From the NCBI GenBank assembly GCA_051884805.1, contig JBJEWA010000030.1, positions 238 to 64,237 on the forward strand: DNA of 64,000 nt, given 5' to 3'. The stretch is from Kiritimatiellia bacterium (GTDB lineage Bacteria; Verrucomicrobiota; Kiritimatiellia; RFP12; UBA1067). The notes below the pieces were generated by a model. That model did no database searches. It saw nothing but the letters and a program-made list of their open reading frames with translations, and was not told the DNA's origin. The translations under genes were made by a program, and so were the position numbers. Shown one piece after another: positions 4,854 to 33,858 of this stretch (positions within the stretch are counted from its first letter, which is position 1; each line of letters starts with the position of its first letter).

Positions 4854-6275
4854 TTACCACGCCAGCGTAATCGGGCACATCAGGCGAACGGCGCCATAGC
4901 TGGTGCTGCCACAACCGCCGTGGTCCCCTTGAACATAATCAGGCAACCGCCACCGATTGCTTGTGCGCTGCTGCGTAATGGAATTGGAGCAGTCGCCGCC
5001 CCGCACAACTCTTCCGTCGCCCGCACTCTCCTCCAATCCGACGGGATCGGTCACATCGTCGGCGCTCATCTCCCCGCGAGGATCATAACTCATGCGCTCC
5101 GCCCAGTCCAGCGTCATCTCCCAAACATTGCCGAGCATGTCGTAAAAGCCCCAGTTGTTGGCCTTCTTGAGCCCTACTTCGTGAATGGTGCTAACGCCGT
5201 CTATCTGCGCGTTCATGTTGAACCATGCGATCTCATCCAACGGACCGTACAGGTTGTCCGTGCCGGGATCATCATACCACCAATAGTCGTAAGGTATGTT
5301 GGCGTCGTTGTACAACGTCGTGGCGGCACCGGCCCTGCAGGCGTATTCCCATTGCGCGTCAGTCGGCAAATCAAACCCGATGCCGTAGCGAGTGCGCATT
5401 TTCGCCAGGATCGTATCGGTCGCGCCATTCATATCGTGCGTGGCCGCATCCTTGGGCCAGCTGTTTCCCCGCATGTTGACATACGCAAACCCGGTGGCCG
5501 GATAGGCGTTGCCGCGCGGCAGGACCGGCCCCGACGTCTCCTGCGGAAAGGCCGTTCCGGCCCCAAGATAATGCCACTGCCCCTGGGTCATGGTGAACAC
5601 CGCGAGATAAAAGTCCTTGGTGAACGTCACCTTGTGCGGGGTTTCAGACTGGGCGTCGCGGCCATAACTTTCGTCGCCCTCGGCAGGAGAACCCATGGTA
5701 AAAGTGACGCCCTCGGCCGGAACCCGCCGCATAACCAGCTTGTGGGTTTTGTAGATTTCATTGTGCACGCCCTGCGTATTGTGCGCCTGACCGTGTCCCG
5801 GAAGGGCCGCTTCCGAGACATAATAGCCCGGCGGCATTGCCCCCAGCAAATCTATCACCAGGTAATCGGGCGGCGTCTCCTTGGGCCAGACCGAGACCTT
5901 GGCCGTGAAGCCGCCATCGATCTTGCCGCCGTCGGGCCACGACCGAGACGGACGCCAGTATATCTTTCTGCTCTCGGCATCCGAAGGCGCAATCAGCTTG
6001 TTGACATCGCCATAGACATTATTGAAATTCACCGCGCCGATGGACACCCCATTGGTCTGAAAGTCCACCGTAACGATTCCTTCTTCATCCAGCAGCGAGT
6101 ATTCGACCGAAACCAGCCCGGTTGCGTCTTGACGAAATTCGACCTGATCGCCCAGCCTTGGCGTGGCGGCAAGCGACGCGCCCGCGCAGAGAGCCAGCAA
6201 GAGCAAGCAGAAATGCGTTTTGTATTGCACCAACGGCGCGAAGATGTTCATCCGTGCTGATTTATGCCTATTCAC
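4854..6275 (-). CDS. FGE/SUMF1-family (formylglycine-generating-enzyme-like) domain protein, secreted
   Basis: Motifs RVVRGG, NNWGFYDMLGNVWEMTLDW and FRLMCP-like C-terminus. GTG start at 6275 with AAGGAGG 7 nt upstream. Hydrophobic signal LLLLALCAGASLA. Confidence 0.8.
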   Translation of the reverse strand: MNRHKSARMNIFAPLVQYKTHFCLLLLALCAGASLAATPRLGDQVEFRQDATGLVSVEYSLLDEEGIVTVDFQTNGVSIGAVNFNNVYGDVNKLIAPSDAESRKIYWRPSRSWPDGGKIDGGFTAKVSVWPKETPPDYLVIDLLGAMPPGYYVSEAALPGHGQAHNTQGVHNEIYKTHKLVMRRVPAEGVTFTMGSPAEGDESYGRDAQSETPHKVTFTKDFYLAVFTMTQGQWHYLGAGTAFPQETSGPVLPRGNAYPATGFAYVNMRGNSWPKDAATHDMNGATDTILAKMRTRYGIGFDLPTDAQWEYACRAGAATTLYNDANIPYDYWWYDDPGTDNLYGPLDEIAWFNMNAQIDGVSTIHEVGLKKANNWGFYDMLGNVWEMTLDWAERMSYDPRGEMSADDVTDPVGLEESAGDGRVVRGGDCSNSITQQRTSNRWRLPDYVQGDHGGCGSTSYGAVRLMCPITLAW

Positions 6276-21959: not shown

Positions 21960-22032
21960 CTTGCGCAAACGTGTCTCATCCCGAAGCCGGCGACAGCCAC
22001 ACCGCCCGGGCGCCACCATCGACTTGCGGGAC

Positions 22033-22041
22033 ATTATAGCA
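22033..22041 (-). promoter_or_regulatory. extended -10 box TGCTATAAT
   Basis: Minus strand reads TGCTATAATG. The final ATG is the ORF-track start, which is therefore unlikely to be used. Confidence 0.45.
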
Positions 22042-22221
22042 TAATCACGGCTGGCAAGGAATCACGGCTCGCAATCGGACGCACGGGCGCACCGAGAATC
22101 TTACGCAAGCTTTTACGCTTTCTTGGGGGCTCTTTCCCGCTCACCTGTACGGTTCCATAGAATGTCGCCGCAACCCTTGATATGATGGCCAAACCATAGA
22201 TTCGCTCCGCATAAAAGCCCT

Positions 22222-22249
22222 AACGGATAGGGGCGAACGGATAGGGGCG
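22222..22249. repeat. perfect tandem direct repeat, 2 x 14 bp AACGGATAGGGGCG
   Basis: Read directly. It contains CGGATAG at 22224-22230 and 22238-22244. Confidence 0.95.
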
Positions 22250-22264
22250 CAAAGGGGCCATCTG

Positions 22265-22301
22265 CTGTGTTCGCACAGGATTTTTTTTTTTTTTCTTTTT
22301 T
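22265..22301 (+). terminator. short UUCG hairpin followed by T14-C-T6 (plus-strand orientation)
   Basis: CTGTGttcgCACAG, then GGA, then T14 C T6. Lies 20 nt beyond the helicase stop. Confidence 0.35.
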
Positions 22302-22321
22302 GTAAGCTTGCACTATGAAGC

Positions 22322-25300
22322 TCATACGATGCCAGATTCCTTCAACAGGGAGAAAGCGATTTCGAGGTATCTGCGGGCCTTGGCGGTCAAGGTTTGCCAG
22401 CCAAACAACCGAATCGTCTCGCGGTAAAGTTCATCTTGATGGCAGCCTCCAAGATCCGTCAGAATCTCCACCATTGCATTCATCAGTTCTTCCGGCGGGA
22501 TTTCCTCGATGGACCGCTTGCTATTCGGATCCTGCGAAGGCACGCGATAATCATGATACTCTGCCACCGCAGCTTCCTTCGGCCAGTAGACCTTTCCCGT
22601 TTCATGCTCGGTAACAACAACATCCGCAGGAACACAGGTGTCAAAAACACGTTGTACGCCCTCAGTCATGCGGGACAGGCCCCACGCCTTGCTGACACGT
22701 CGGCGAACAACGGTTTCGTAAATTGGCCACTCCTGTTTCACGACCTCTCCAACCATCTGCGAAATCCGTTGGCGGGAAGACGCTTCATAAAAGTAATCGT
22801 GAAGGTAGATTGACGGGCTTTGCCAGACAACGTACTGCTTATGGCGCGGACGCACTGCATCTGCAGGCATAGGCGCATTCTCCGCAGCCATGTGAGACTC
22901 GCCGCCGTCGGGGGCGCTCTCGGCCGCCTTCTCCAGCGCTGGTTCTTCTCGCGCCTGCTGAATGAGTTCAAGCAGATGCGATTCTGCGCGTTTGCGGTCA
23001 TATGCCCAATCAACGCTCCACACTCGACACATATGCCAACCGAGTCCGTTTAGCACGGCAGTTCGATTGACATCACGATCCTGCGCGGTAAACTGCTCGG
23101 CATAAGACCGCCCGTCGCATTCAATGCCCATCAGATATTCGCATGGGTTTTCGGGAGCTTTGACTGCGACGTCAATGCGGTACTCCGAACAACCGACGTC
23201 ACGCTCGACCTCATATCCGTTGCTTTCCAGGAAATGCGCGACAACGGAACCAAAATCATCCGCCGCCCGCTTCACCGCGCTTTCGCCCGGCCCAGCCGAA
23301 CCGCGTTCGGCGTATTCGAGGAACGCCTTCAAGTGACCGGCGCCGACAGCCCTGGTTCGACCACCTTCACCCGCATCGATGTCCCTGCCATGAATTGACG
23401 CGAAGACTATCACCTGCTCTCTGGCACGGGTAACGGCAACATTCAGCCTCCGCTCTCCGCCAGCCAGATTGAGCGGTCCGAAATTCATGGTGAACTTGCC
23501 GTTTTCGTCTGGCGCATACCCGACCGAGAAGAGAATCACGTCGCTCTCGTCGCCTTGGACGTTCTCAAGGTTCTTGACGAAATACGCGCCCTCGCCCTCT
23601 TCGGGCAGACGCTTCTCAAGTATCGGATCCGCGCTGCGTCGCTCTTCAAGCAATGTGCGAATGAGTTTCTGTTGCGGTTGGCTAAACGTCACGATTCCAA
23701 TGGAGCGCTGTTTGTAATCCGCTTTCCTGACTTCCGCACAGATATAATCGACCAGAGCTTCGGCCTCCACAGTATTTACGCGCGACCCTCGTCCGTTGCG
23801 CGCGAAAACGCCGTTCTTCACAAACTCAAATTTAACTCCCAGACGCGCCGAGTTACAGGCCGCAGGGAATGTGTACAGCTTGTTCGAGTAGTAGTGTTCG
23901 TTGCTGAACGCGATAAGTGCTTCGTGCCGACTACGATAATGCCAATTGAGATAGGTTGAATAGACACCCGCCACAAGGCACTCGTCAAGGATGCTCTCTT
24001 GATCTGAAATGGACTCGTCATCCGCGTCCGCGTCTTCGATGTCGCCCTTTTGGAAGAAACTTGTCGGCGGCATCTGCTTTGGATCGCCCACCACAATCAG
24101 CTGCTTCCCTCGCGCAATCACCCCAATGGCATCCCAGACGGGAATTTGAGATGCTTCGTCAAAAACAATCAGATCGAACGGAGCCGTGTCCACTGGCAAG
24201 TATTGGGCGACCGACAACGGACTCATCAGGAAGCAGGGCTTGAGCATCGGAATAAGTGTGCGCGACTCGGCAAGCATCTGTCGGACGGCTTTTTGCCGCG
24301 TCTTCTTTTCGCATTCGCGCTTGAGCATCCCCAATTCCGACCCTTCGGGACACGGGCCGCTTCTCCGTCTCGGCAATGTCGCCGCCAACCTCGCAAACAC
24401 AACCCGCTTCGCGAGTGTCGTGTACTTTCGGTCAAGTTCCCGGAATCGCTCAATCCGTTCTTCCTGCGTCAATCCGGTGAATTCGGACAAAATCTTGTCT
24501 TGAGACAGAATCATCTCCAGCATTTTCGACGCATATGAAGCATCGAAAAGTCCTCCGACATCCAGGCAACCGTCGTCGTTCGCCATCAGATAGTCCGCGA
24601 ACACCCCCATGCCGAGTTCTCGCACGCGCGCCAGTGCCGACCGACACCGAATGACATTGCGAAGGTCGGCTATGTTCTCGACGAAAGAACGACACGTCGA
24701 CACAAGTTCGGGCAAATTGGCTGGCAGCAAGGCCACGTCGACAAATTCGTCCAGAGCAGAGACGAGTTCCTTTAATTCCTTGTCTCGGGAAATCGCCTGT
24801 TCGAAATCATCACGGATGTCTGCCGCAATCTCAATGGTGTCGTCAATTGAACCGCCAGCCTGTTCAGCATACTGCGACTCAATCGTCAAAAGCTCCCGGA
24901 TCTTTGGCAGGTCGGCGGCGAGTCCGGCAGCGGTGAGTTTTCCTCCGCCGAGCTTCACAATTGAGGACAGTTCCGCAACCAATGCCCTGTCTTTGAAGAA
25001 TCTGAAGACGAAGAACGATTGAGCGTTGGCAACGAGCCGACTCTCAACCGAATCGACATCAACCTCACGCAGCTTCTCAATTCTGTAACGCGAAAGCTCT
25101 CCCGCCAATTTCGCATGCGCATCGACCAGCGAGGCCAATTTCTGAAACACCGCCGGTTCGGCCAATCCGCATTGGGGTTGGAAACGGCTCGGCATCCGCG
25201 ACGCCGACCGCAATCGCCGGATAACATCCAGCGCCGCATTAACGGCATCGGCATTGTAATCCTCGACAAGTCCTATCTTGCAATACGCCTGCCGCAATGC

Positions 25301-27976
25301 CTCAAGGGCGTTCTCGGCAGCGATCGCAACCTTTTCAGTTGCCGTCTTCAGTTGACGCTCAAAAACGGGGGACCACGTCGTCGTTCTCAATTCTGGCGTC
25401 ACCTTGAGCGCGATTTCCGACGCCGAGCGAAGATGTGACGACAAATCCAAGACGCTCTGACGCGAATCCCTGTAGGCGTCTCTGCTCTGTTCGAGACAGT
25501 TTACGGAAACAAGTTCAGGCTGAGAATTCCTGTCGGACTGAATAATCCTCGTAAAACAATCGTAGGCCGTCAGCCCATTCGGGTACGAAGCATGGAGATC
25601 CTTGATGTAGCCGTTTAGCTCGCTCCGGCATTTCTCGAAGTCTGCGACAACCTGATTCCATTCGCCAGGGGCAGGCGTTTCCGGCACGTTCAACGCCTCT
25701 TTGATTTGCGCGTAGAACCTGCCTTTTTCCGTTTTGTTGGAATGCAGCTCAAGGCAGAATGGCGTCAGGCCGATCCTATCAAGGCGATCCTTCACGACCT
25801 CAAGCGCAGCCTTCTTCTCGGATACGAACAAGACACGACGCCCCAAGGCAAGATTATGGGCGATGATGTTCGTGATGGTTTGCGACTTACCGGTTCCAGG
25901 AGGACCATGCAGGACAAACGATTTGCCCATCTCGGAATACAGGACAGCGGCCAACTGGGACGAATCATAACTTACCGGGCAAAAAAGCTCTCCGGGGTTG
26001 AAATGCTGCGCGACCTCATCAGCCGGGAACACATTGATCCCGTCGTCGAAACAGCCGCCGCCGCCGATCAGATGATTCACAAGCGGACTTGCCTTGAGAT
26101 CGTCCACCCGTTCGGTCATGTCTTTCCACATGACAAACTTTCCAAAAGAGAAGCACCCGATGTAAGCATCATCGCGGACTTCCCATCCTTCCATCTCCTT
26201 CACCGCCTGACGAAAGATCTGAAGGATCAGCGCAACATCCACGCCAGAATCGTCCGTCGGCAATGGATCAAGCCCTGGCAACGTCAAGTTAAACTGTGCG
26301 CGGAGAAATTCGATTAAGGTCGCATTGATCGTCGTGTCCTCGTCAAGCCGAAACAGCTTAACGCCCTCGGCCATTGACGCGCGAGCCAATCGGACGGGAA
26401 CAAGCAGGATCGGCGCACGATAACTCTTTCGATTCGACCCGGTTCCGGGCTCTACCCACTGAAGCGTGCCGATAGACAGGAAGAGCGTGTTGACGCCGGA
26501 TTCCTCCAATTCGGTTTTTGCATCGTGTAAAAGATCCGAGAGCCGCTTTCTCACTTCGCTCTGCGGCATCATGACGCAAAGGCGGTGATGCGTAAGCTCT
26601 GCATCGACAATGTTAGAACATTGCTCCCGCGTGAGGCGATTGTTCAGCAGATCATCCAGCGCCTTCTCCCCCATTGACTCGGCAATGGAACGAATGGTAA
26701 TCGTTTCGTTCGCCGCTATCTGATCTTCAAGGCCGGAAACGTTTGCACAGACAAGGGGAATGATCTGCCGGGACGATTTCGGGATGTTCAGCAAACGATT
26801 ACGCGCTGAAAAATCGAGAAGCTTCTGCGTCCACCGGTCGATTCGTCCTTGCGTACCCTGTGCTTCCGGAAGCGCCGAAAGATCTATGCTTTCCTTGAGG
26901 TTCCTGACGAGGCCATTCCCCTCGGCGTCTACTTGACGTCCCGCGGCCATATATGCTGCCGAGCCGCCCCCGACGCCGCACGTGATCGGCCTTATGCCGC
27001 TTTCGCGACTGCGAACGACATCAATGGCGCACGTAAAAGACTCATCGTCCGAAAGGTGCTCTCGCCCGCATCGTTCCGCTTCGTTGAACGGCGTATCCGT
27101 TGTGACCTTGGTTGTCTCAATGGCGACAAATTCGTCAAGATCCGCGCGCTTGCGCAGCGCCTGCAGATTCCAGGTGACAACGTCCTCGAACATCTCCTCA
27201 ATCAGGTGACATCCCACATAGCAATGCCCCTTGACGAGTATCAGCACAGGATGCAGTTCGCACTTTTCCATGACTGATGCCATGAGCAGCGATGTTTCGA
27301 TGCACGTGCCGAGTTTGAATTTCTCAACCGTGTCGGCCAGACGGATCTTCTGTCCCGGAACGCCGAACGATGACGGCGGATTGCAATAGCGTATTCCCGT
27401 TTTCTGAATGGCCGAATAAATCGCCGCGCAGATTTCCAGCACCCGTTTCTTATCGCCTTGATACCCCTCCAAAGACGATGCGCCAGTTGACAGTTCGATT
27501 TCATGCGCAGCCTCCGCCTGAAGACGATTCACGAAATCTGCGTTCGGCTGCGCATAGGCTGACAACAACTCGGCATATGGACGGATTCCCAGCCATTGGT
27601 CGACCGCCAGCACCGTCATCGGAAAATCTTGGCGAAACAGCTCTCGTCCCGACGAGGAAACGATCATTGAGACGTGACCCGTGATCGGGTCGCCCGACAC
27701 TTCGGCGATGCGTCGCGCGTTTAGAAGAATCCCTACATTCGCTTTCCCGGCAGTCCCATGCGGGGGAATTTCCTTGAACGCAACCTCTCCGGGGATGACA
27801 AGCTCTTCGTCCGATGCAAAAGCGCAAACGACATCCCTTAGCGGATCATCGGTCGTGTTGTTGATGCGCAGATTCTGTATCGCAGGAAGGCCATTCTGGA
27901 CAAGTGCCAGATTAACATATTCCAAGACATCGACACCCGATATTGGCGTTTGGGACTGCGTCTGCGCATCTGCCAT
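22322..27976 (-). CDS. 1884-aa multidomain protein: transglutaminase/papain-like N-domain, DUF4011-type region, Upf1-like SF1 helicase, PD-(D/E)xK (DUF559/Vsr-like) nuclease, DUF3320-type C-terminus (Hhe-like defence helicase architecture)
   Basis: Motifs seen: GTCIETS...KGHCYVG...FVAIETT; LHGPPGTGKSQT (Walker A); LIVFDEASQ; VGDPKQMPP; NWHYRSRHEALI; LNVAVTRAREQV; YRIDVAV...MGIECDG...RDVNR...GWHMCRVWSVDW. Confidence 0.85.
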   Translation of the reverse strand: MADAQTQSQTPISGVDVLEYVNLALVQNGLPAIQNLRINNTTDDPLRDVVCAFASDEELVIPGEVAFKEIPPHGTAGKANVGILLNARRIAEVSGDPITGHVSMIVSSSGRELFRQDFPMTVLAVDQWLGIRPYAELLSAYAQPNADFVNRLQAEAAHEIELSTGASSLEGYQGDKKRVLEICAAIYSAIQKTGIRYCNPPSSFGVPGQKIRLADTVEKFKLGTCIETSLLMASVMEKCELHPVLILVKGHCYVGCHLIEEMFEDVVTWNLQALRKRADLDEFVAIETTKVTTDTPFNEAERCGREHLSDDESFTCAIDVVRSRESGIRPITCGVGGGSAAYMAAGRQVDAEGNGLVRNLKESIDLSALPEAQGTQGRIDRWTQKLLDFSARNRLLNIPKSSRQIIPLVCANVSGLEDQIAANETITIRSIAESMGEKALDDLLNNRLTREQCSNIVDAELTHHRLCVMMPQSEVRKRLSDLLHDAKTELEESGVNTLFLSIGTLQWVEPGTGSNRKSYRAPILLVPVRLARASMAEGVKLFRLDEDTTINATLIEFLRAQFNLTLPGLDPLPTDDSGVDVALILQIFRQAVKEMEGWEVRDDAYIGCFSFGKFVMWKDMTERVDDLKASPLVNHLIGGGGCFDDGINVFPADEVAQHFNPGELFCPVSYDSSQLAAVLYSEMGKSFVLHGPPGTGKSQTITNIIAHNLALGRRVLFVSEKKAALEVVKDRLDRIGLTPFCLELHSNKTEKGRFYAQIKEALNVPETPAPGEWNQVVADFEKCRSELNGYIKDLHASYPNGLTAYDCFTRIIQSDRNSQPELVSVNCLEQSRDAYRDSRQSVLDLSSHLRSASEIALKVTPELRTTTWSPVFERQLKTATEKVAIAAENALEALRQAYCKIGLVEDYNADAVNAALDVIRRLRSASRMPSRFQPQCGLAEPAVFQKLASLVDAHAKLAGELSRYRIEKLREVDVDSVESRLVANAQSFFVFRFFKDRALVAELSSIVKLGGGKLTAAGLAADLPKIRELLTIESQYAEQAGGSIDDTIEIAADIRDDFEQAISRDKELKELVSALDEFVDVALLPANLPELVSTCRSFVENIADLRNVIRCRSALARVRELGMGVFADYLMANDDGCLDVGGLFDASYASKMLEMILSQDKILSEFTGLTQEERIERFRELDRKYTTLAKRVVFARLAATLPRRRSGPCPEGSELGMLKRECEKKTRQKAVRQMLAESRTLIPMLKPCFLMSPLSVAQYLPVDTAPFDLIVFDEASQIPVWDAIGVIARGKQLIVVGDPKQMPPTSFFQKGDIEDADADDESISDQESILDECLVAGVYSTYLNWHYRSRHEALIAFSNEHYYSNKLYTFPAACNSARLGVKFEFVKNGVFARNGRGSRVNTVEAEALVDYICAEVRKADYKQRSIGIVTFSQPQQKLIRTLLEERRSADPILEKRLPEEGEGAYFVKNLENVQGDESDVILFSVGYAPDENGKFTMNFGPLNLAGGERRLNVAVTRAREQVIVFASIHGRDIDAGEGGRTRAVGAGHLKAFLEYAERGSAGPGESAVKRAADDFGSVVAHFLESNGYEVERDVGCSEYRIDVAVKAPENPCEYLMGIECDGRSYAEQFTAQDRDVNRTAVLNGLGWHMCRVWSVDWAYDRKRAESHLLELIQQAREEPALEKAAESAPDGGESHMAAENAPMPADAVRPRHKQYVVWQSPSIYLHDYFYEASSRQRISQMVGEVVKQEWPIYETVVRRRVSKAWGLSRMTEGVQRVFDTCVPADVVVTEHETGKVYWPKEAAVAEYHDYRVPSQDPNSKRSIEEIPPEELMNAMVEILTDLGGCHQDELYRETIRLFGWQTLTAKARRYLEIAFSLLKESGIV

Positions 27977-27980
27977 TTCT

Positions 27981-29003
27981 CTACTCCCGTTTGGTCGTCT
28001 TCATCTCCGATCGCATTTCGGATATTTGTGCGATCAATGCCTTGAGCATCTCCCCTTGCTCACGCAGAAGCGCATCATGCTCAATGTCCTTCTCGCGCCG
28101 CAAGGCAAGTTCGCTTTCGTGCCGACCATCGCTTTTAGCCCTTGCTTCGGCTTCAGCGGCCAATCCTTCGTGGCCGATCTGCTCCATAAGGCCAGACGCG
28201 ATAATGCCTGAAGGAACCGCTACTGCCGCCACGCCCAAAAGTGCAATAAACGCACCGATAATCCGTCCCGCCATTGTGACAGGATAGATGTCTCCGTATC
28301 CAACGGTGGTCAAGGTAACTACCGCCCACCACAATCCGCTAAACGCATTTTTGAATACGGCAGGCTGCGCATCATGCTCAACAGTGTAAATAAGCAACGA
28401 CGAAACAAGCATGAGCAGCAACACCAGAATCACCGAACCGATCAGTTCGCGCCGTTTCGCCCTGACGACATTCCCAATTGATTTGATGGCATCAAAATAA
28501 CGATTCAATTTCAGGATGCGCAAAAAGCGCACAAGGCGGAGTGCTCTCATTCCAAACATCGCCCCCGGAACGAACATCGGCAGCCAGAACGGGAGAATGG
28601 CAAGCAAATCTATGATCGCCAAGGAAGAGCAGACGTAGCGAACTCGCGACATCAGCCTTGAACTTCTCGGGTAGAGACAATCTGCCGTCCAAACACGAAG
28701 CAGATATTCGACGGTAAATAGCAATGAAACCCCATAGTCGAAGATGGTAATAGCCCTCTGCCACACTGGCGGCAGCGCCAAGGTCGCCACATAAACTGAA
28801 ATCACGCTGCCAAGAATAAGCATGGTGATGAAAGCATCAAAAAACCGGCTTACTCGCGATGTTCCACGATCAGGCTGAATGATCTCGAAAATCGTACGCT
28901 TCATCAGGGCATAGCCGCGCAAAGGAGCATTAGGCAAAACACCAGATTTCGCGATGTTTTTCGCAGCACATCCTTCGACATTATTAGCCATAATTGACGA
29001 CAT
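27981..29003 (-). CDS. voltage-gated-type (6TM) K+ channel with C-terminal coiled coil
   Basis: S4-like MRALRLVRFLRILKLNRY. Selectivity filter TLTTVGYGD. The stop is 4 nt before the helicase ATG. The true start may be the ATG at 28991, because the 29003 ATG lies inside a TATAAT box. Confidence 0.85.
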   Translation of the reverse strand: MSSIMANNVEGCAAKNIAKSGVLPNAPLRGYALMKRTIFEIIQPDRGTSRVSRFFDAFITMLILGSVISVYVATLALPPVWQRAITIFDYGVSLLFTVEYLLRVWTADCLYPRSSRLMSRVRYVCSSLAIIDLLAILPFWLPMFVPGAMFGMRALRLVRFLRILKLNRYFDAIKSIGNVVRAKRRELIGSVILVLLLMLVSSLLIYTVEHDAQPAVFKNAFSGLWWAVVTLTTVGYGDIYPVTMAGRIIGAFIALLGVAAVAVPSGIIASGLMEQIGHEGLAAEAEARAKSDGRHESELALRREKDIEHDALLREQGEMLKALIAQISEMRSEMKTTKRE

Positions 29004-29010
29004 TATACCA
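29002..29010 (-). promoter_or_regulatory. extended -10 box TGGTATAAT overlapping the first ATG of the channel ORF
   Basis: Minus strand reads TGGTATAATGTCGTCAATTATGGC. Confidence 0.45.
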
Positions 29011-29112
29011 TATTTCAGAATGTAACGCCGCCGATCGAGTGATCATCAGCGTTTTGGACACGGCAACGACAAGAAGCACGCCGCGGCAAATCCCGACGGG
29101 CGAAACTTAGCG

Positions 29113-29135
29113 ACTATCCGCCTGTTTACTATCCG
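29113..29135. repeat. direct doublet ACTATCCG-N7-ACTATCCG, the inverse of the 22222-22249 doublet
   Basis: CTATCCG at 29114-29120 and 29129-29135 (15-bp period) is the reverse complement of CGGATAG. Confidence 0.9.
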
Positions 29136-29175
29136 AAAGCTCGTTTACTTCTGGACGCAACGACGCGCCGTGCGC

Positions 29176-30153: not shown

Positions 30154-31724
30154 TGCCGCGCCGCCGCCTTTGCCGGCTGCGCGACCGGCGACGGCAGCAC
30201 CGTCAGGAGCGGGTCGGAATACGGCGCTTGCGGATCCATGCGGGCGAACGAGACGTAGCTCGGCGCCCCCCACCCGGTCTTCGCGTTGCGCCCGAAGACG
30301 GAGATGTCCACGCGGTTCGTCGGCGACATGGCCCGGCGGTCGATGACGATCCGCGCGGCATTCGGCGCCGTCCGTTCGATCTTGACGTCAACGCCCTGTC
30401 CGTGCGTCTGCACGAACGCGTACTCCTCGGCGCCTTTCGCCGTGATGTCGAACGTGCGCACCGTATCCTCCGCCCGCAGGACGAACGCCCAGGCGAAGAC
30501 GGTGCCGTAAGTCAGCTCGGGCTGGGTCGAGGGCGTCTTCACCGGTCCGGGAGTGACGGAAACCGCCACCAGCGGCGGCACGGCGTCCGCCGTCAGCGCC
30601 CGCGCCGCCGCCACCAGCCGGTTGGTCTCGACGCCGCCGGGCGGCAGGGCCGTCGGGTGCGCCCGTGCGCTCGTGTAGTCCGCCTCCGAGCGGACGCCCC
30701 TGAGCGACTTGCGAATCAGCGTCTGCACCGTCGGCGCCAGCATTCCGCGCGCGACAATCGTTTCCTTGACCTTGCGGTCGAGCGACCGGGAGACTTCCAG
30801 CGCCGCCCGCAGGTACGGCAGGTCCGACCAGCTCCGCCCGGCCGTCGTCATCCAGTACGGCGCAATCGAGGCGAAGACGTCGCCGTTGGTTCCGACCGGC
30901 GCGGTGTCGGCGTTGGACGGGAAGACCCACGTCTGGTTCGAGAGATAGAGCTTCGCCATCAGGCCGAGCCGGGGGGACTCCCCCGTCAGCAACGCGCGCG
31001 AAAGCGACCGCCAGTACGGACCGTGCGTCATCGCCAGCGACGCGTTGCCGAAGGCAGGATAGGGAAAGACGATGTTCGGAATGCTCATGTGCATCATCCG
31101 GTTCGTTCCCTCGCTGTCCAGCGTCACCCGCGTCAGCCCCGGAAACTCGTCGCGCCGCAGGGCCGAATGGTTGTTGTCGCGGTTCATGTAGAGGTCGCCG
31201 ACGCTCCGCCCGGACGAGCCGGCGACCAGCTGCATCTTCGCCACGAAACAGCCGACGTCGAAGTCCCACCCGAGATTCTGCTCGCCCAGCGCGATCGGCT
31301 TGCCGAAGACGCCGGTCGCACTGATCGCCGAGTGCGGACCCGACAGCAGCGGCCGGGTCTGCATGAACGTGGCGTATTCGAGCAGTTCGCGGAACCGCCG
31401 CTCCTTGGACAGCCGCCGGAGATCCGTGTCCTTTTCGATGGCCTCCCGGTCGCGGAAGCCGAAGTCAATCGCCTTTTCGAGTTCGTCGAGCGCCTCGTCC
31501 GCGCGCTGGTCGAAATAGGCGAGCGAACAGGCCAGGTTGTAGTGCCAGGTCGGATCTTCCGGCAGCAGCTCCACGCCCCGGCGGCACGTCGCTTCCATCG
31601 TCGCCGTGTCGCCGGACCTGAGCGCCTCCAGAAACTGCCGGCGCAGCCGGTCGTGCGTCTGATGCCGCGCCGGATAGTCCCAGATGGACAGGACGGCCAG
31701 GACTGCAAGCAAGATCGCGTTCAT
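30150..31724 (-). CDS. membrane-anchored hypothetical protein with TPR-like N-terminal region
   Basis: N-terminal TM MNAILLAVLAVLSIW, then a helical-repeat-like segment. No family recognised for the remaining 400 aa or so. Confidence 0.6.
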   Translation of the reverse strand: MNAILLAVLAVLSIWDYPARHQTHDRLRRQFLEALRSGDTATMEATCRRGVELLPEDPTWHYNLACSLAYFDQRADEALDELEKAIDFGFRDREAIEKDTDLRRLSKERRFRELLEYATFMQTRPLLSGPHSAISATGVFGKPIALGEQNLGWDFDVGCFVAKMQLVAGSSGRSVGDLYMNRDNNHSALRRDEFPGLTRVTLDSEGTNRMMHMSIPNIVFPYPAFGNASLAMTHGPYWRSLSRALLTGESPRLGLMAKLYLSNQTWVFPSNADTAPVGTNGDVFASIAPYWMTTAGRSWSDLPYLRAALEVSRSLDRKVKETIVARGMLAPTVQTLIRKSLRGVRSEADYTSARAHPTALPPGGVETNRLVAAARALTADAVPPLVAVSVTPGPVKTPSTQPELTYGTVFAWAFVLRAEDTVRTFDITAKGAEEYAFVQTHGQGVDVKIERTAPNAARIVIDRRAMSPTNRVDISVFGRNAKTGWGAPSYVSFARMDPQAPYSDPLLTVLPSPVAQPAKAAARQ

Positions 31725-33115
31725 CGGCGAAAGCTCATCCAGCCGGGAAGTTTGACCTGCCTGGCCTCGCGGCTCTGGTTGGTGGAAACGGTCTCCGCGC
31801 TGCCGATCGACGGCGATTCCAGGGACGCCAGACGGGCCAGCAGCGCCTGCTGCTTCGTCGCCTGCTGCCGGCGAAGCTCCTCGTTCAGCTGGCGCTCGGC
31901 CAGCAGCTCCTTCTCGCGGACGGACAGCCGCTCGGTCAGGGCCACGACCTCCTGCCGGAGCTGGGTCACGTCCTTGAGCCCGGCCTCCGTCCGCAGGTTC
32001 TCGGCCTTGCTCTGACGCAACTTCTCGGTCAGCTCGCGAATCTTCGCCTCGCTGTCGAGCCGCGCCCGGTCGGACGCCCGGCGGAATTCCTCGAACTCCT
32101 TGCGGAGCTGCGCCGTCCGCGGATCCTCCGGACGGGCCAGCAGCGCCCGGCGCGTCATGTCCTCGATGTTGGCGCCCGAACGCTTGAGCAGTTCGTGACG
32201 GCGCTCGACCAGGCGGTCGGCCCGGTCCGCATAGCGCTTGCGCATGTCCTCAAACTCGCGCTTCTCGACTTCGATGACGCGGGCCAGCTCCTCCGCCTCG
32301 CCGGTGATGATCGAATGGACCGCCGCCTGGATTTCGGCCACCTCGCTGGCCGCCTGCGGCAGCCGCCGCAGCTCGTCCTCCAGATGCTTCACCTGCTCGA
32401 CGTACTTGCCCTCGCGGTCGGCGGCCTCCTGCAGTGCGGCCTCGCTCTTGTCAAGCCGCTCCTGCACCGCAGCGGCTTCCGCCCGCAGCGCGTTCTCCCG
32501 CCCGACTGCCGCCTTTGCCGCCTCCGACGCATTGCGGGAGGATGCGGTCAGGCATTCCTGCAGCTTCGCCGCATGGGCACGCTCTTCGGCCAGCAGCCCC
32601 TCAAGTTCCCTGACGCGCGTCTCGTCGATGACGACCTTCTCCACGATCCGCTCGACGGGGACTTCGACGCGGACTTCCTTTTCGACGATCTTCTCGACCG
32701 GGACTTCCTTGATCACCTCCCGTTCGACGACCCGCTCAACGGGGGCCTCGACCCGGGCCGCCCCCTCGTCGGAGGCAGGCGCTGGCGCGGGAGACGCCGA
32801 CGACTCGGACGGCTCCTCCGGGAACGGCTCCCGCGTCTCGACGATCGTCGCCGTCGGCGGCAGCCGCCCGCTCGCCAGCAGCGCCTCGGCCGCGGCCCGG
32901 TTGAACGGACCGCGCGGATTGCCGTCCCCGATGTCGATCGAAAAGCGCATGTCGAGAAACGGAACGTCTTCGACCCGCCGCCATTCGATGTTGTCGTCGG
33001 AGACCTCCTGCCCGGGCTGGATGCGCCCGAGCTTCGCCCACGCGACGAGCTTCGCCGCCGTCTCGGGGCCAAACGTCTCGTCCTGCGTCCGCAGGTACCA
33101 TGTGGCTTCGTTCAT
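31721..33115 (-). CDS. GYF_2 (DUF4339)-like domain protein with VEK repeats and a long coiled coil
   Basis: WYLRTQDETFGPETAAKLVAWAKLGRIQP...W, two GYF-like modules, VERVVEREVIKEVPVEKIVEKEVRVEVPVERIVEKVV, then about 300 aa of heptad-rich sequence. Confidence 0.7.
   Translation of the reverse strand: MNEATWYLRTQDETFGPETAAKLVAWAKLGRIQPGQEVSDDNIEWRRVEDVPFLDMRFSIDIGDGNPRGPFNRAAAEALLASGRLPPTATIVETREPFPEEPSESSASPAPAPASDEGAARVEAPVERVVEREVIKEVPVEKIVEKEVRVEVPVERIVEKVVIDETRVRELEGLLAEERAHAAKLQECLTASSRNASEAAKAAVGRENALRAEAAAVQERLDKSEAALQEAADREGKYVEQVKHLEDELRRLPQAASEVAEIQAAVHSIITGEAEELARVIEVEKREFEDMRKRYADRADRLVERRHELLKRSGANIEDMTRRALLARPEDPRTAQLRKEFEEFRRASDRARLDSEAKIRELTEKLRQSKAENLRTEAGLKDVTQLRQEVVALTERLSVREKELLAERQLNEELRRQQATKQQALLARLASLESPSIGSAETVSTNQSREARQVKLPGWMSFRR
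32630..32752. repeat. coding repeat block (VE[KR][IV]VEK units), near-identical at DNA level to part of 33304-33537
   Basis: 32641-32710 aligns nearly base for base with 33401-33470. Confidence 0.8.
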
Positions 33116-33858
33116 CGCTTCTTGTCCCCAAACAGATTAAAGCCCAGACCGCCCCGCCGAGCGTGGCGAAGCTCGTTTCTCGCCGCCGCCTCCAGGGCCG
33201 CGAGCCGGTTGCGCCCGACCCCCCGGAACGGAGACTCCGGCGACTTCGGCGGCATCTCGGCGACCGGCTCGACGACTTCGGCCACGACGATCTCCGTCCG
33301 CGCCGGCGGCGGGACCTCGACGATCTTCTCCACGATCTTCTCGACCGGGACCTCCTTGACGACGACCTTCTCGACGACTTTCTCGACGACCTTTTCCACA
33401 ATCCGCTCGACCGGGACTTCGACGCGGACTTCCTTTTCGACGATCTTTTCGACTGGAACTTCCTTGACGACGACCTTCTCCACGATCTTCTCGACCGGAA
33501 CCTCGACGCGGACTTCCTTTTCGACGATCTTCTCCACGGACGGCGGATCCTGATCGACCGCAAGCTCGTGCCGGCGATAGACCTTCGCCGTCGCCGGAAG
33601 CTCGCCCGACTGGGAAAGCCGGATGACGACGGCGCGGTTGAACGGACCGAAGACCTTGCCCGGCTCCAGCTCGACCAGCCAGGACATCCCGAGCTCCGGC
33701 ATCGTCTGCGCCGGCATCCAGGACTTCCGGTCGCGCGAAACGAAGGAGGCCGGCTCGATCCGGCCGTCTTGCGCCCACAGGGACATCGCGTCGACGCCCG
33801 CCGGCCCGTAGACCTTGCCGTCAGCCGTGCGAACGTACCAAACCTTCTCGCCAGTCAT
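33112..33858 (-). CDS. GYF_2 (DUF4339)-like domain protein with about 78 aa of EVPVEKIVEK tandem repeats
   Basis: WYVRTADGKVYGPAGVDAMSLWAQDGRI, a second module ELEPGKVFGPFNRAVV, then VEKIVEKEVRVEVPVEKIVEKVVVKEVP... repeats. Confidence 0.7.
   Translation of the reverse strand: MTGEKVWYVRTADGKVYGPAGVDAMSLWAQDGRIEPASFVSRDRKSWMPAQTMPELGMSWLVELEPGKVFGPFNRAVVIRLSQSGELPATAKVYRRHELAVDQDPPSVEKIVEKEVRVEVPVEKIVEKVVVKEVPVEKIVEKEVRVEVPVERIVEKVVEKVVEKVVVKEVPVEKIVEKIVEVPPPARTEIVVAEVVEPVAEMPPKSPESPFRGVGRNRLAALEAAARNELRHARRGGLGFNLFGDKKR
33304..33537. repeat. in-frame tandem repeats (14-aa period, about 42 nt) encoding VPVEKIVEKEVRVE-type units
   Basis: Read from both the translation and the DNA. Confidence 0.85.

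Follow-up and report, generated by a model that had tools for sequence, protein, structure and literature searches.

A voltage-gated-type potassium channel gene coupled to a ProA/PDC-S37-family helicase-nuclease gene in a mobile two-gene operon

Prokaryotic voltage-gated K+ (Kv) channels serve as structural models of their field, yet their physiological roles are largely unknown. Could such a channel belong to a defence against phages? The question is raised by a 64,000-nt stretch of DNA from a Kiritimatiellia bacterium (assembly GCA_051884805.1, contig JBJEWA010000030.1, positions 238 to 64,237 of the forward strand; hereafter the window), in which a gene for a six-transmembrane K+ channel directly precedes the gene for an 1884-aa helicase-nuclease. 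The host has a G+C content of 67% and is of the Planctomycetes–Verrucomicrobia–Chlamydiae (PVC) type. An earlier note, made from the letters of this stretch, proposed the two genes as a candidate defence module. As judged from gene order, flanks and sequence divergence, the channel-helicase pair is a mobile, conserved and translationally coupled two-gene operon. It represents a clade-specific Kv-channel partner of the ProA/PDC-S37 single-gene system: the pairing appears to be new, whereas the helicase family already has a name.

The insertion and its recurrence

Sister genomes were sought through the flanking Dus protein, which led to a contig (L068) whose Dus is 86% identical and whose genes run as in the window: a pair of GYF-domain genes, then a 523-aa gene, Dus, a 284-aa gene and an acyl-CoA synthetase gene. 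This contig carries the empty site, with a spacing of only 14 nt between Dus and the 284-aa gene, and its DNA aligns to the window on either side of the insertion (L068 422-5028 on window 33894-29201, 88%; L068 5098-7554 on window 21932-19476, 91%). Because L068 shows the empty site, the window insertion can be delimited as exactly two genes: 7.2 kb (about 21960-29175) comprising channel and helicase, ~185 nt upstream and ~360 nt downstream. The lower G+C content that the earlier note had ascribed to both genes is borne out by values of 0.51–0.55 across 22001-29000 versus 0.66–0.71 in both flanks, and by a G+C at third codon positions (GC3) of 0.56 for the channel and 0.62 for the helicase versus 0.85–0.94 for neighbouring host genes. 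The window locus is a horizontally acquired two-gene operon that splits a housekeeping operon between Dus and the gene after it. The insertion junctions contain neither an integrase or transposase gene nor a tRNA, the only tRNA (tRNA-Met) lying 3 kb off, and scans of IMG/VR returned no viral relatives of channel or helicase, and therefore nothing that would point to a phage or prophage as the source.

When GTDB genomes and JGI metagenomes were scanned for relatives of the helicase, 53 loci emerged, and exact-protein look-ups added further ones. A channel of the same family lies directly upstream of the helicase in eight lineages (the window, L001, L006 (=L059), L033, L034, L055/56/57, L058 and L074/75/76), and in all eight the helicase start falls between −8 and +4 nt from the channel stop, in the form of ATGA overlaps, 8-nt overlaps, or gaps of 2 or 4 nt. 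The TAG-AGAA-ATG junction of the window, where the earlier note had already placed the channel stop 4 nt before the next ATG, belongs to this range. Overlap of stop and start codons suggests that the two genes are co-expressed in constant proportion and do not simply lie together. Flanks of the six comparable loci among the eight share no homology at the DNA or the translated level, and the pair forms a low-G+C island in three hosts (window, L006 and L074); in L006 and L074 its G+C is 0.47–0.50 versus about 0.60–0.65 in the flanks, except for a short 1.2-kb downstream flank of L006 at 0.54. Unrelated flanks and the low-G+C islands together imply that channel and helicase move as a unit, a two-gene cassette that has been transferred between gut or rumen bacteria.

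All linked helicases fall into one clade of the helicase tree, whose subclades (65–73% identical) correspond one-to-one to channel subtypes. Pairwise identities of channel and helicase are correlated (r = 0.97 over seven pairs, a descriptive value only, as the points are not independent), dS of the two genes is similar in each comparison, and the ratio of nonsynonymous to synonymous divergence (dN/dS) is 0.06–0.09 for the channel and 0.07–0.11 for the helicase. The subclade match, the correlation, the similar dS and the low dN/dS argue for one origin, after which channel and helicase diverged together, both under purifying selection. Independent recruitment of channels on several occasions, to which their polyphyletic appearance in the channel tree and their two tail types might point, is rejected in view of the match between helicase subclade and channel type and of r = 0.97. 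These comparisons indicate a single origin with co-divergence and later losses, which we favour over repeated recruitment.

Two further loci deserve mention. The closest channel homologue (L032, 83% identity) is followed after 37 nt by a different-looking open reading frame (ORF), and its contig ends 100 nt further on. In L007, a Verrucomicrobia metagenome-assembled genome, a 45% identical ProA-like helicase has a same-family channel 2.3 kb downstream, not adjacent. The surroundings (L007 255-16183) form a dense defence island. Besides the ProA-like helicase, in which the N-terminal module is missing, and the Kv channel, which has a Zn-ribbon tail, it holds TerY with two kinases and a PP2C phosphatase (a TerY-P triad), a polyvalent-protein kinase, AbiEi, a UvrD helicase that is GajB-like and has a Zn ribbon at its N-terminus, and a membrane protein of 274 aa whose family is unknown.

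The two proteins and the boundaries of the operon

The 340-aa channel of the earlier note is borne out, with six transmembrane segments, an arginine-bearing S4 helix, the TVGYGD filter and a tail that is charged and helical, and needs a correction only at its start: the first ATG of the ORF (27981..29003) lies inside a TATAAT box, and the second (28991, 336 aa) serves as start codon in the protein-database entry as well as in the nearest homologue. The Pfam family Ion_trans covers residues 53-272 in 340-aa numbering (2.2e-33, 115.9 bits versus a cut-off of 25), Ion_trans_2 matches at 5.7e-16, and the best sequence matches among solved structures are human KCNQ5, KCNQ4 and KCNQ2 (E 1e-33, residues 30-273), with S1–S6 aligned. 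Among 56 homologues, S4 retains a basic residue at every third position (R149, R155, R158, K161 and R164 invariant, R152 nearly so), the charge-transfer centre is invariant (F92 and E95 in S2, D128 in S3), and so are T229, G231, Y232, G233 and D234 of the filter (TTVGYGD), with V230 nearly invariant. The AlphaFold2 monomer shows a confident voltage-sensor domain and a single long helix (237-335), with a predicted local distance difference test (pLDDT) of 87–95 over the last ~35 residues; the C-terminal tail is probably a coiled coil. Taken together, the Pfam and KCNQ matches, the invariant sensor and filter residues and the AlphaFold2 model identify the protein, on sequence grounds, as a bona fide Kv-type channel with gating charges, charge-transfer centre and filter intact. 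Membership in the MVP-type hyperpolarisation-activated channels (NF040645; 59.6 bits, below the cut-off of 300) and in Kch (NF007828; 30.2 bits, below the cut-off of 425) was rejected. None of 5027 PADLOC models matched the channel, which hence has no homology to Zorya, Kiwa or other known membrane components.

The helicase-nuclease has the ProA architecture in full: N-terminal module, DUF4011, superfamily 1 (SF1) helicase, PD-(D/E)xK nuclease and DUF3320. It scores 1788 bits against the NCBIfam model antiphage_ProA (NF058533), above the equivalog cut-off of 1500, and its best PADLOC match is the single-gene candidate PDC-S37 (1177 bits, E = 0), well above Hhe at 530 bits. The earlier note had given the architecture as that of Hhe, the single-gene anti-phage family reported from the 2020 screen of Gao et al., an identification that has to be given up: the layout is Hhe-like, but the Hhe_antiphage model (NF042953) gives 757.8 bits (rounded, 758) against a cut-off of 2000. 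As the ProA cut-off is passed and the Hhe cut-off failed, we assign the protein to ProA/PDC-S37. For comparison, the ProA model gives 1790 bits for L002, 1558 for L007 and 2225 for a Klebsiella plasmid protein, and 1168–1201 for actinobacterial relatives, which fail the cut-off of 1500. Pfam finds DUF4011, AAA_11/AAA_12, MTES_1575 and DUF3320 in the protein, and DUF559, named in the earlier note, stays below threshold. The motifs GPPGTGKS, DEASQ, VGDPKQMPP, VAVTRAR, YRIDVAV, IECDG and RVWSVDW are all present, and the helicase core matches IGHMBP2, Upf1 and Sen1 among solved structures.

The N-terminal module (residues about 1-330) is unannotated, and AlphaFold2 predicts it with high confidence as a beta-sandwich followed by a transglutaminase-like core (mean pLDDT 89; predicted template modelling score (pTM) 0.86). 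Its Foldseek matches, protein 4.2, factor XIII and TG3 (E between 4e-5 and 1e-3), are partial, with alignments of ~120 columns. Its conserved residues (C256, H257 and D281 invariant, C225 and H251 nearly invariant) are shared with full-length homologues, and the ProA model spans the module, the plasmid protein matching model positions 2-1903. Many PVC relatives lack or replace it, with matches that start at residue ~372, so that it behaves as a swappable sensor/effector module. Phage resistance by ProA is presumed here from the NCBIfam family name, its sole source; a literature search found no defining paper for ProA, PDC-S37 or DUF4011/DUF3320, and absence there is not proof of absence.

Table 1. 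Features of the channel-helicase insertion, in window coordinates
Feature	Position	Strand	Basis
Inserted low-G+C segment, from the Dus stop codon to the ATG of the next host gene	21960..29175	(-)	L068 alignment, G+C profile
Kv7-like six-transmembrane voltage-gated-type K+ channel	27981..28991 (alternative start 29003, 340 aa)	(-)	Pfam, solved-structure matches
S4 voltage-sensor helix RALRLVRFLRILKLNR, residues 149-164	28500..28547	(-)	Translation, family alignment
K+ selectivity filter TVGYGD, residues 229-234	28290..28307	(-)	Translation, family alignment
C-terminal charged helical tail (KDIEHDALLREQ... type)	27984..28154	(-)	AlphaFold2, homologue tails
Channel stop (TAG) to helicase ATG, 4-nt spacer	27977..27980	(-)	...GAG TAG AGAA ATG GCA...
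ProA/PDC-S37-family helicase-nuclease, 1884 aa	22322..27976	(-)	NCBIfam and PADLOC scores
N-terminal beta-sandwich and transglutaminase-like (papain-fold) module, residues about 1-330	26987..27976	(-)	AlphaFold2, Foldseek, conservation
DUF4011 segment, residues 385-558	26303..26824	(-)	Pfam 6.2e-37
Upf1-like SF1 helicase core, split by an insert of ~525 aa	23396..25999; Walker A 25883-25906; DEASQ 24146-24160	(-)	Pfam AAA_19/AAA_30/AAA_11/AAA_12
Vsr-like PD-(D/E)xK nuclease (REase_MTES_1575), residues 1575-1671	22964..23254	(-)	Pfam 7.7e-27; YRIDVAV, IECDG, RVWSVDW
DUF3320 tail segment	22652..22798	(-)	Pfam 7.7e-10
Promoter-like extended -10 box ATATGGTATAATGTC upstream of the channel start	28999..29013	(-)	Sequence; conserved upstream of the L032 channel and the L036 helicase
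TATAATGTC box, second copy (TTATGCTATAATGTC), at the distal insert end and ~70 nt ahead of the next host gene	22030..22044	(-)	Sequence
Terminator-like hairpin CTGTG-TTCG-CACAG, then T14CT6; antisense to the operon, 22 nt past the helicase stop	22265..22300	(+)	Sequence

Upstream of the channel, a consensus scan did not call a full sigma-70 site at the promoter-like box. Extended -10-like boxes of this type (TATGGTATAAT / TATGCTATAAT) occur at both ends of the window insertion, in L032 at about 1150-1170 and in L036 at about 4880-4895. The copy at the distal end may be a promoter that reads outwards and so brings the interrupted host operon back to expression. A target-site duplication, formed by the TATAATGTC box at both island ends, was not accepted, because ~0.3 chance matches are expected for this 9-mer (an estimate) and it looks like a promoter box. 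Downstream of the helicase, the antisense hairpin is followed by an A/T run whose length is odd for a genome of 67% G+C and which may be left over from a convergent neighbour in the donor. In total, terminator-like sites of the region do not exceed the shuffled expectation. Two copies of a tandem direct repeat, CGCCCCTATCCGTT, lie 3' of the helicase (about 22215-22245, minus strand), and the second contains a weak sense-strand terminator-like hairpin (CCCTATCCGTTAGGG, then CTTTTAT). A motif found downstream in the window, L001 and L032, GCGTAAGAT, was dropped as not enriched in the window.

Beyond the insertion, the two neighbouring GYF_2-domain genes (window 31721-33858) contain internal repeats of ~70–110 nt, visible as several off-diagonal BLAST matches to L068. 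Genes for Cas3, Cas5d and a Peptidase_M78 protein adjoin the GYF-domain genes in the sister genomes L069 (501-3499) and L070 (21-3432), where the window has YidC on the matching side (beyond 33900). This site is another variable spot of the lineage.

Functional coupling or linkage of two genes

Does the persistence of the pair reflect a shared function? We tentatively regard the channel as a facultative accessory of the defence protein. The main rival, to which we give about the same probability, is that the two genes merely hitchhike together: in the ancestor of one clade, an ordinary K+ channel would once have become the upstream neighbour and promoter donor of a ProA gene, and the two would since have been co-inherited and co-transferred through their compact adjacency while keeping separate jobs in ion homeostasis and defence. 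A single origin with strict co-divergence speaks for such a history, and the association counts as a single evolutionary event, however many lineages carry the pair.

Several observations weigh against a functional pair and fit simple linkage, beginning with helicases that lack the channel. The L060 helicase (66% identity) stands alone inside the linked clade. So does the closest relative found, the L036 helicase (71% identical over the first 700 residues), which lies on a partial contig and is not in the tree; it is directly preceded by the same ATGGTATAAT box as the window channel. A channel-like match 5' of it (11 residues, E = 1.4) was dismissed as weak. Together with L061, these loci show either gene alone in or next to the clade. 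The sister clades L002–L005 (60–63%) and ~40 more distant helicase loci have no adjacent channel, nor do relatives without the N-terminal module or the actinobacterial relatives, and the ProA of a Klebsiella IncFIB plasmid (2225 bits) is a lone gene between insertion sequence elements. The pairing is clade-limited and facultative, and the helicase can stand alone. PDC-S37 is listed as a stand-alone gene, which describes most other relatives; in the eight lineages it has a conserved, coupled channel partner. The two-gene unit of the earlier note survives in a narrower form: it is horizontally acquired, with coupled adjacency in eight lineages and six unrelated contexts, all in one clade. Across the wider family the helicase almost never neighbours a channel, which the earlier note had named as a finding against its module. 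The flanks of the window locus (Dus, GYF-domain proteins, YidC, acyl-CoA synthetase, tRNA-Met, HAD hydrolase and pseudouridine synthase) do not form a defence island, another point on the same side.

Channels without the helicase add to this. Of the 8000 candidates scored, 5253 proteins reach E ≤ 1e-10, so that the family is large; it consists mostly of PVC-group metagenome sequences, and some members lie in housekeeping contexts. Of channels sampled outside the known linked groups, 0/5 were linked to a helicase; one sampled inside such a group (P0082) was. The P0018 channel lies between a mannitol dehydrogenase gene and an AlaRS-like gene on three contigs, and is nested among the linked channels, given its 82% core identity to a linked subtype. 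Among other unlinked relatives, P0103 sits among genes of unknown function, and P0048 and P0046, both helicase-free, each follow a homologous AAA/AAA_lid_6 ATPase gene. The earlier note had named channel relatives at unrelated loci as a finding that would count against its module; close relatives do occur there, housekeeping loci included. No sequence feature was found that distinguishes linked from unlinked channels. Among the closest homologues (P0001–P0120), 66/120 have a tail of the KDxEHDxLLREQ coiled-coil type and 11/120 a short, CPHCGK Zn-ribbon-like one; the remainder are 'other' by the two motif patterns used, many of them looking like coiled-coil variants. Both types occur in linked and unlinked channels, so that tail type does not track linkage, and the difference in tail among linked pairs argues against a conserved interface between tail and helicase.

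The two channels that follow an ATPase gene are distantly related and lie in the islands L064 (4300-7920) and L072 (6261-8882); their AAA/AAA_lid_6 ATPases are 49% identical to each other over ~294 aa. The former island contains a Macro-domain gene, PDC-S01 and PDC-S02, the latter an MmeI-type restriction-modification system split by a YhcG/DUF1016 gene. In this ATPase, the channel family may have a second partner that recurs.

Other evidence speaks against linkage without function. Adjacency and translational coupling persist down to ~58–62% channel and 65–68% helicase identity and through at least five relocations into unrelated contexts. In the window the mobile unit amounts to exactly the two genes, in L006 and L074 the pair stands out by its composition as an island of two genes, the channel in the cassette is under strong purifying selection and not a decaying passenger, and L007 provides a second, independent co-location.

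Two further readings assign the channel a defence function of its own, and we give little weight to either. In the first, the channel would be an abortive-infection effector in the manner of lambda RexAB: the helicase-nuclease would sense foreign nucleic acid and open the channel, and K+ loss would halt growth and phage replication. Operon order and coupling agree with this. RexAB combines a nucleic-acid-sensing component with RexB, an ion-conducting membrane effector. A pore that is strictly selective for K+ shifts the membrane to the K+ equilibrium potential without collapse of the proton-motive force. Cam1, a type III CRISPR effector, is likewise an ion-conducting membrane effector in defence (PMC10808066). 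The likeness lies in a nucleic-acid sensor joined to a membrane pore. The pores of RexAB and Cam1, however, depolarise the cell and are not K+-selective or voltage-gated, whereas the window channel retains a canonical K+ filter and its voltage sensor is complete. Nor is a conserved cytosolic interface apparent. A RexB-like role is less likely because such a K+-selective pore spares the proton-motive force and because the helicase already has its own nuclease effector.

The second, equally improbable, holds that two independent single-gene defences are packaged together, the channel acting alone at the membrane (for example on potential-dependent DNA entry) and travelling with ProA as a minimal defence island. 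Same-family channels in ProA-free islands with defence-type genes (L064 and L072, both with the AAA ATPase) and the multi-system island of L007 are in keeping with it. Yet the channel matches no PADLOC model, other family members have plainly housekeeping surroundings, and the stop/start overlap suggests co-expression at a fixed ratio.

A proposed role and its parallels

Returning to the channel as a facultative accessory, a defence role is plausible on the genomic evidence, and a mechanism can be outlined. Ion fluxes and depolarisation accompany phage DNA entry, as summarized in 10.64898/2026.01.24.701513. The voltage sensor would respond to the depolarisation and ion leak of genome entry, and the resulting K+ flux, or the cytosolic face of the channel at the membrane, would alter the timing or the site of helicase-nuclease action on incoming DNA. 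As DNA- or RNA-targeting effector, the helicase-nuclease would remain able to work without the channel. We hypothesize, with considerable doubt, that a canonical voltage-gated K+ channel is here the membrane arm of a prokaryotic immune module, sensing phage-entry depolarisation and licensing a ProA-type helicase-nuclease through K+ flux or its cytosolic face. The hypothesis is testable: a conserved mobile operon ties a Kv channel to an anti-phage helicase-nuclease and suggests that the electrical signature of infection could be sensed or exploited. If it is true, a bacterial Kv channel would for the first time be found to serve immunity, echoing the K+-efflux danger signalling of animal innate immunity, and helicase-nuclease defences would gain a new class of membrane partner. 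If the link is non-functional, the locus is a clean, empty-site-controlled example of a neighbour carried with a defence gene through many transfers, and a caution for discovery by guilt-by-association.

How does the pair compare with known systems? With Kv7/KCNQ, KvAP and MVP the window channel has in common the six-transmembrane Ion_trans fold, the S4 arginine ladder, the charge-transfer centre and TVGYGD, and it differs as a short bacterial protein with a coiled-coil or, in other members of its type, Zn-ribbon tail. We know of none of these channels that is encoded alongside a defence gene. In agreement with the earlier note, a literature search and the PADLOC models revealed no earlier description of a Kv/Ion_trans channel paired with a defence system, an absence that is not in itself proof. 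The window helicase has the full-length architecture of ProA/PDC-S37 and scores above the curated cut-off; ProA/PDC-S37 is treated as a single-gene system, whereas the window and one PVC clade have a Kv channel gene translationally coupled upstream. With Hhe the helicase shares DUF4011, the Upf1-like helicase and the Vsr-like nuclease core (a partial match to the hidden Markov model, window protein residues about 1050-1690), whereas its N-terminal module and tail fit the ProA model instead. Viewed as a two-gene defence system, the pair is found in eight lineages and six unrelated contexts, within one clade and from one origin, with the extra co-location in L007, and is absent from the rest of the family.

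Among two-component membrane defences, Zorya was the parallel drawn in the earlier note. Its ZorD subunit is a helicase/nuclease. The membrane-embedded ZorAB is paired with soluble ZorC/ZorD, as outlined in PMC11946911. The likeness is that an ion-conducting complex of the membrane is encoded together with soluble subunits directed at nucleic acids. ZorAB, a proton-driven motor, resembles MotAB and not a Kv channel and is unrelated in sequence, and Zorya partners are obligate, whereas the window pairing is facultative. In Kiwa, KwaA is not an ion-selective voltage-gated channel and has no homology to the window channel, and a complex has been demonstrated for Kiwa. Its two-gene logic nevertheless comes closest: according to the outline in PMC11785009, Kiwa is membrane-sensing, with KwaA, a membrane tetramer, responding to infection-induced membrane changes, and KwaB serving as the soluble, DNA-binding effector. 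By this analogy, Kiwa is the nearest working counterpart of the proposed channel-helicase module.

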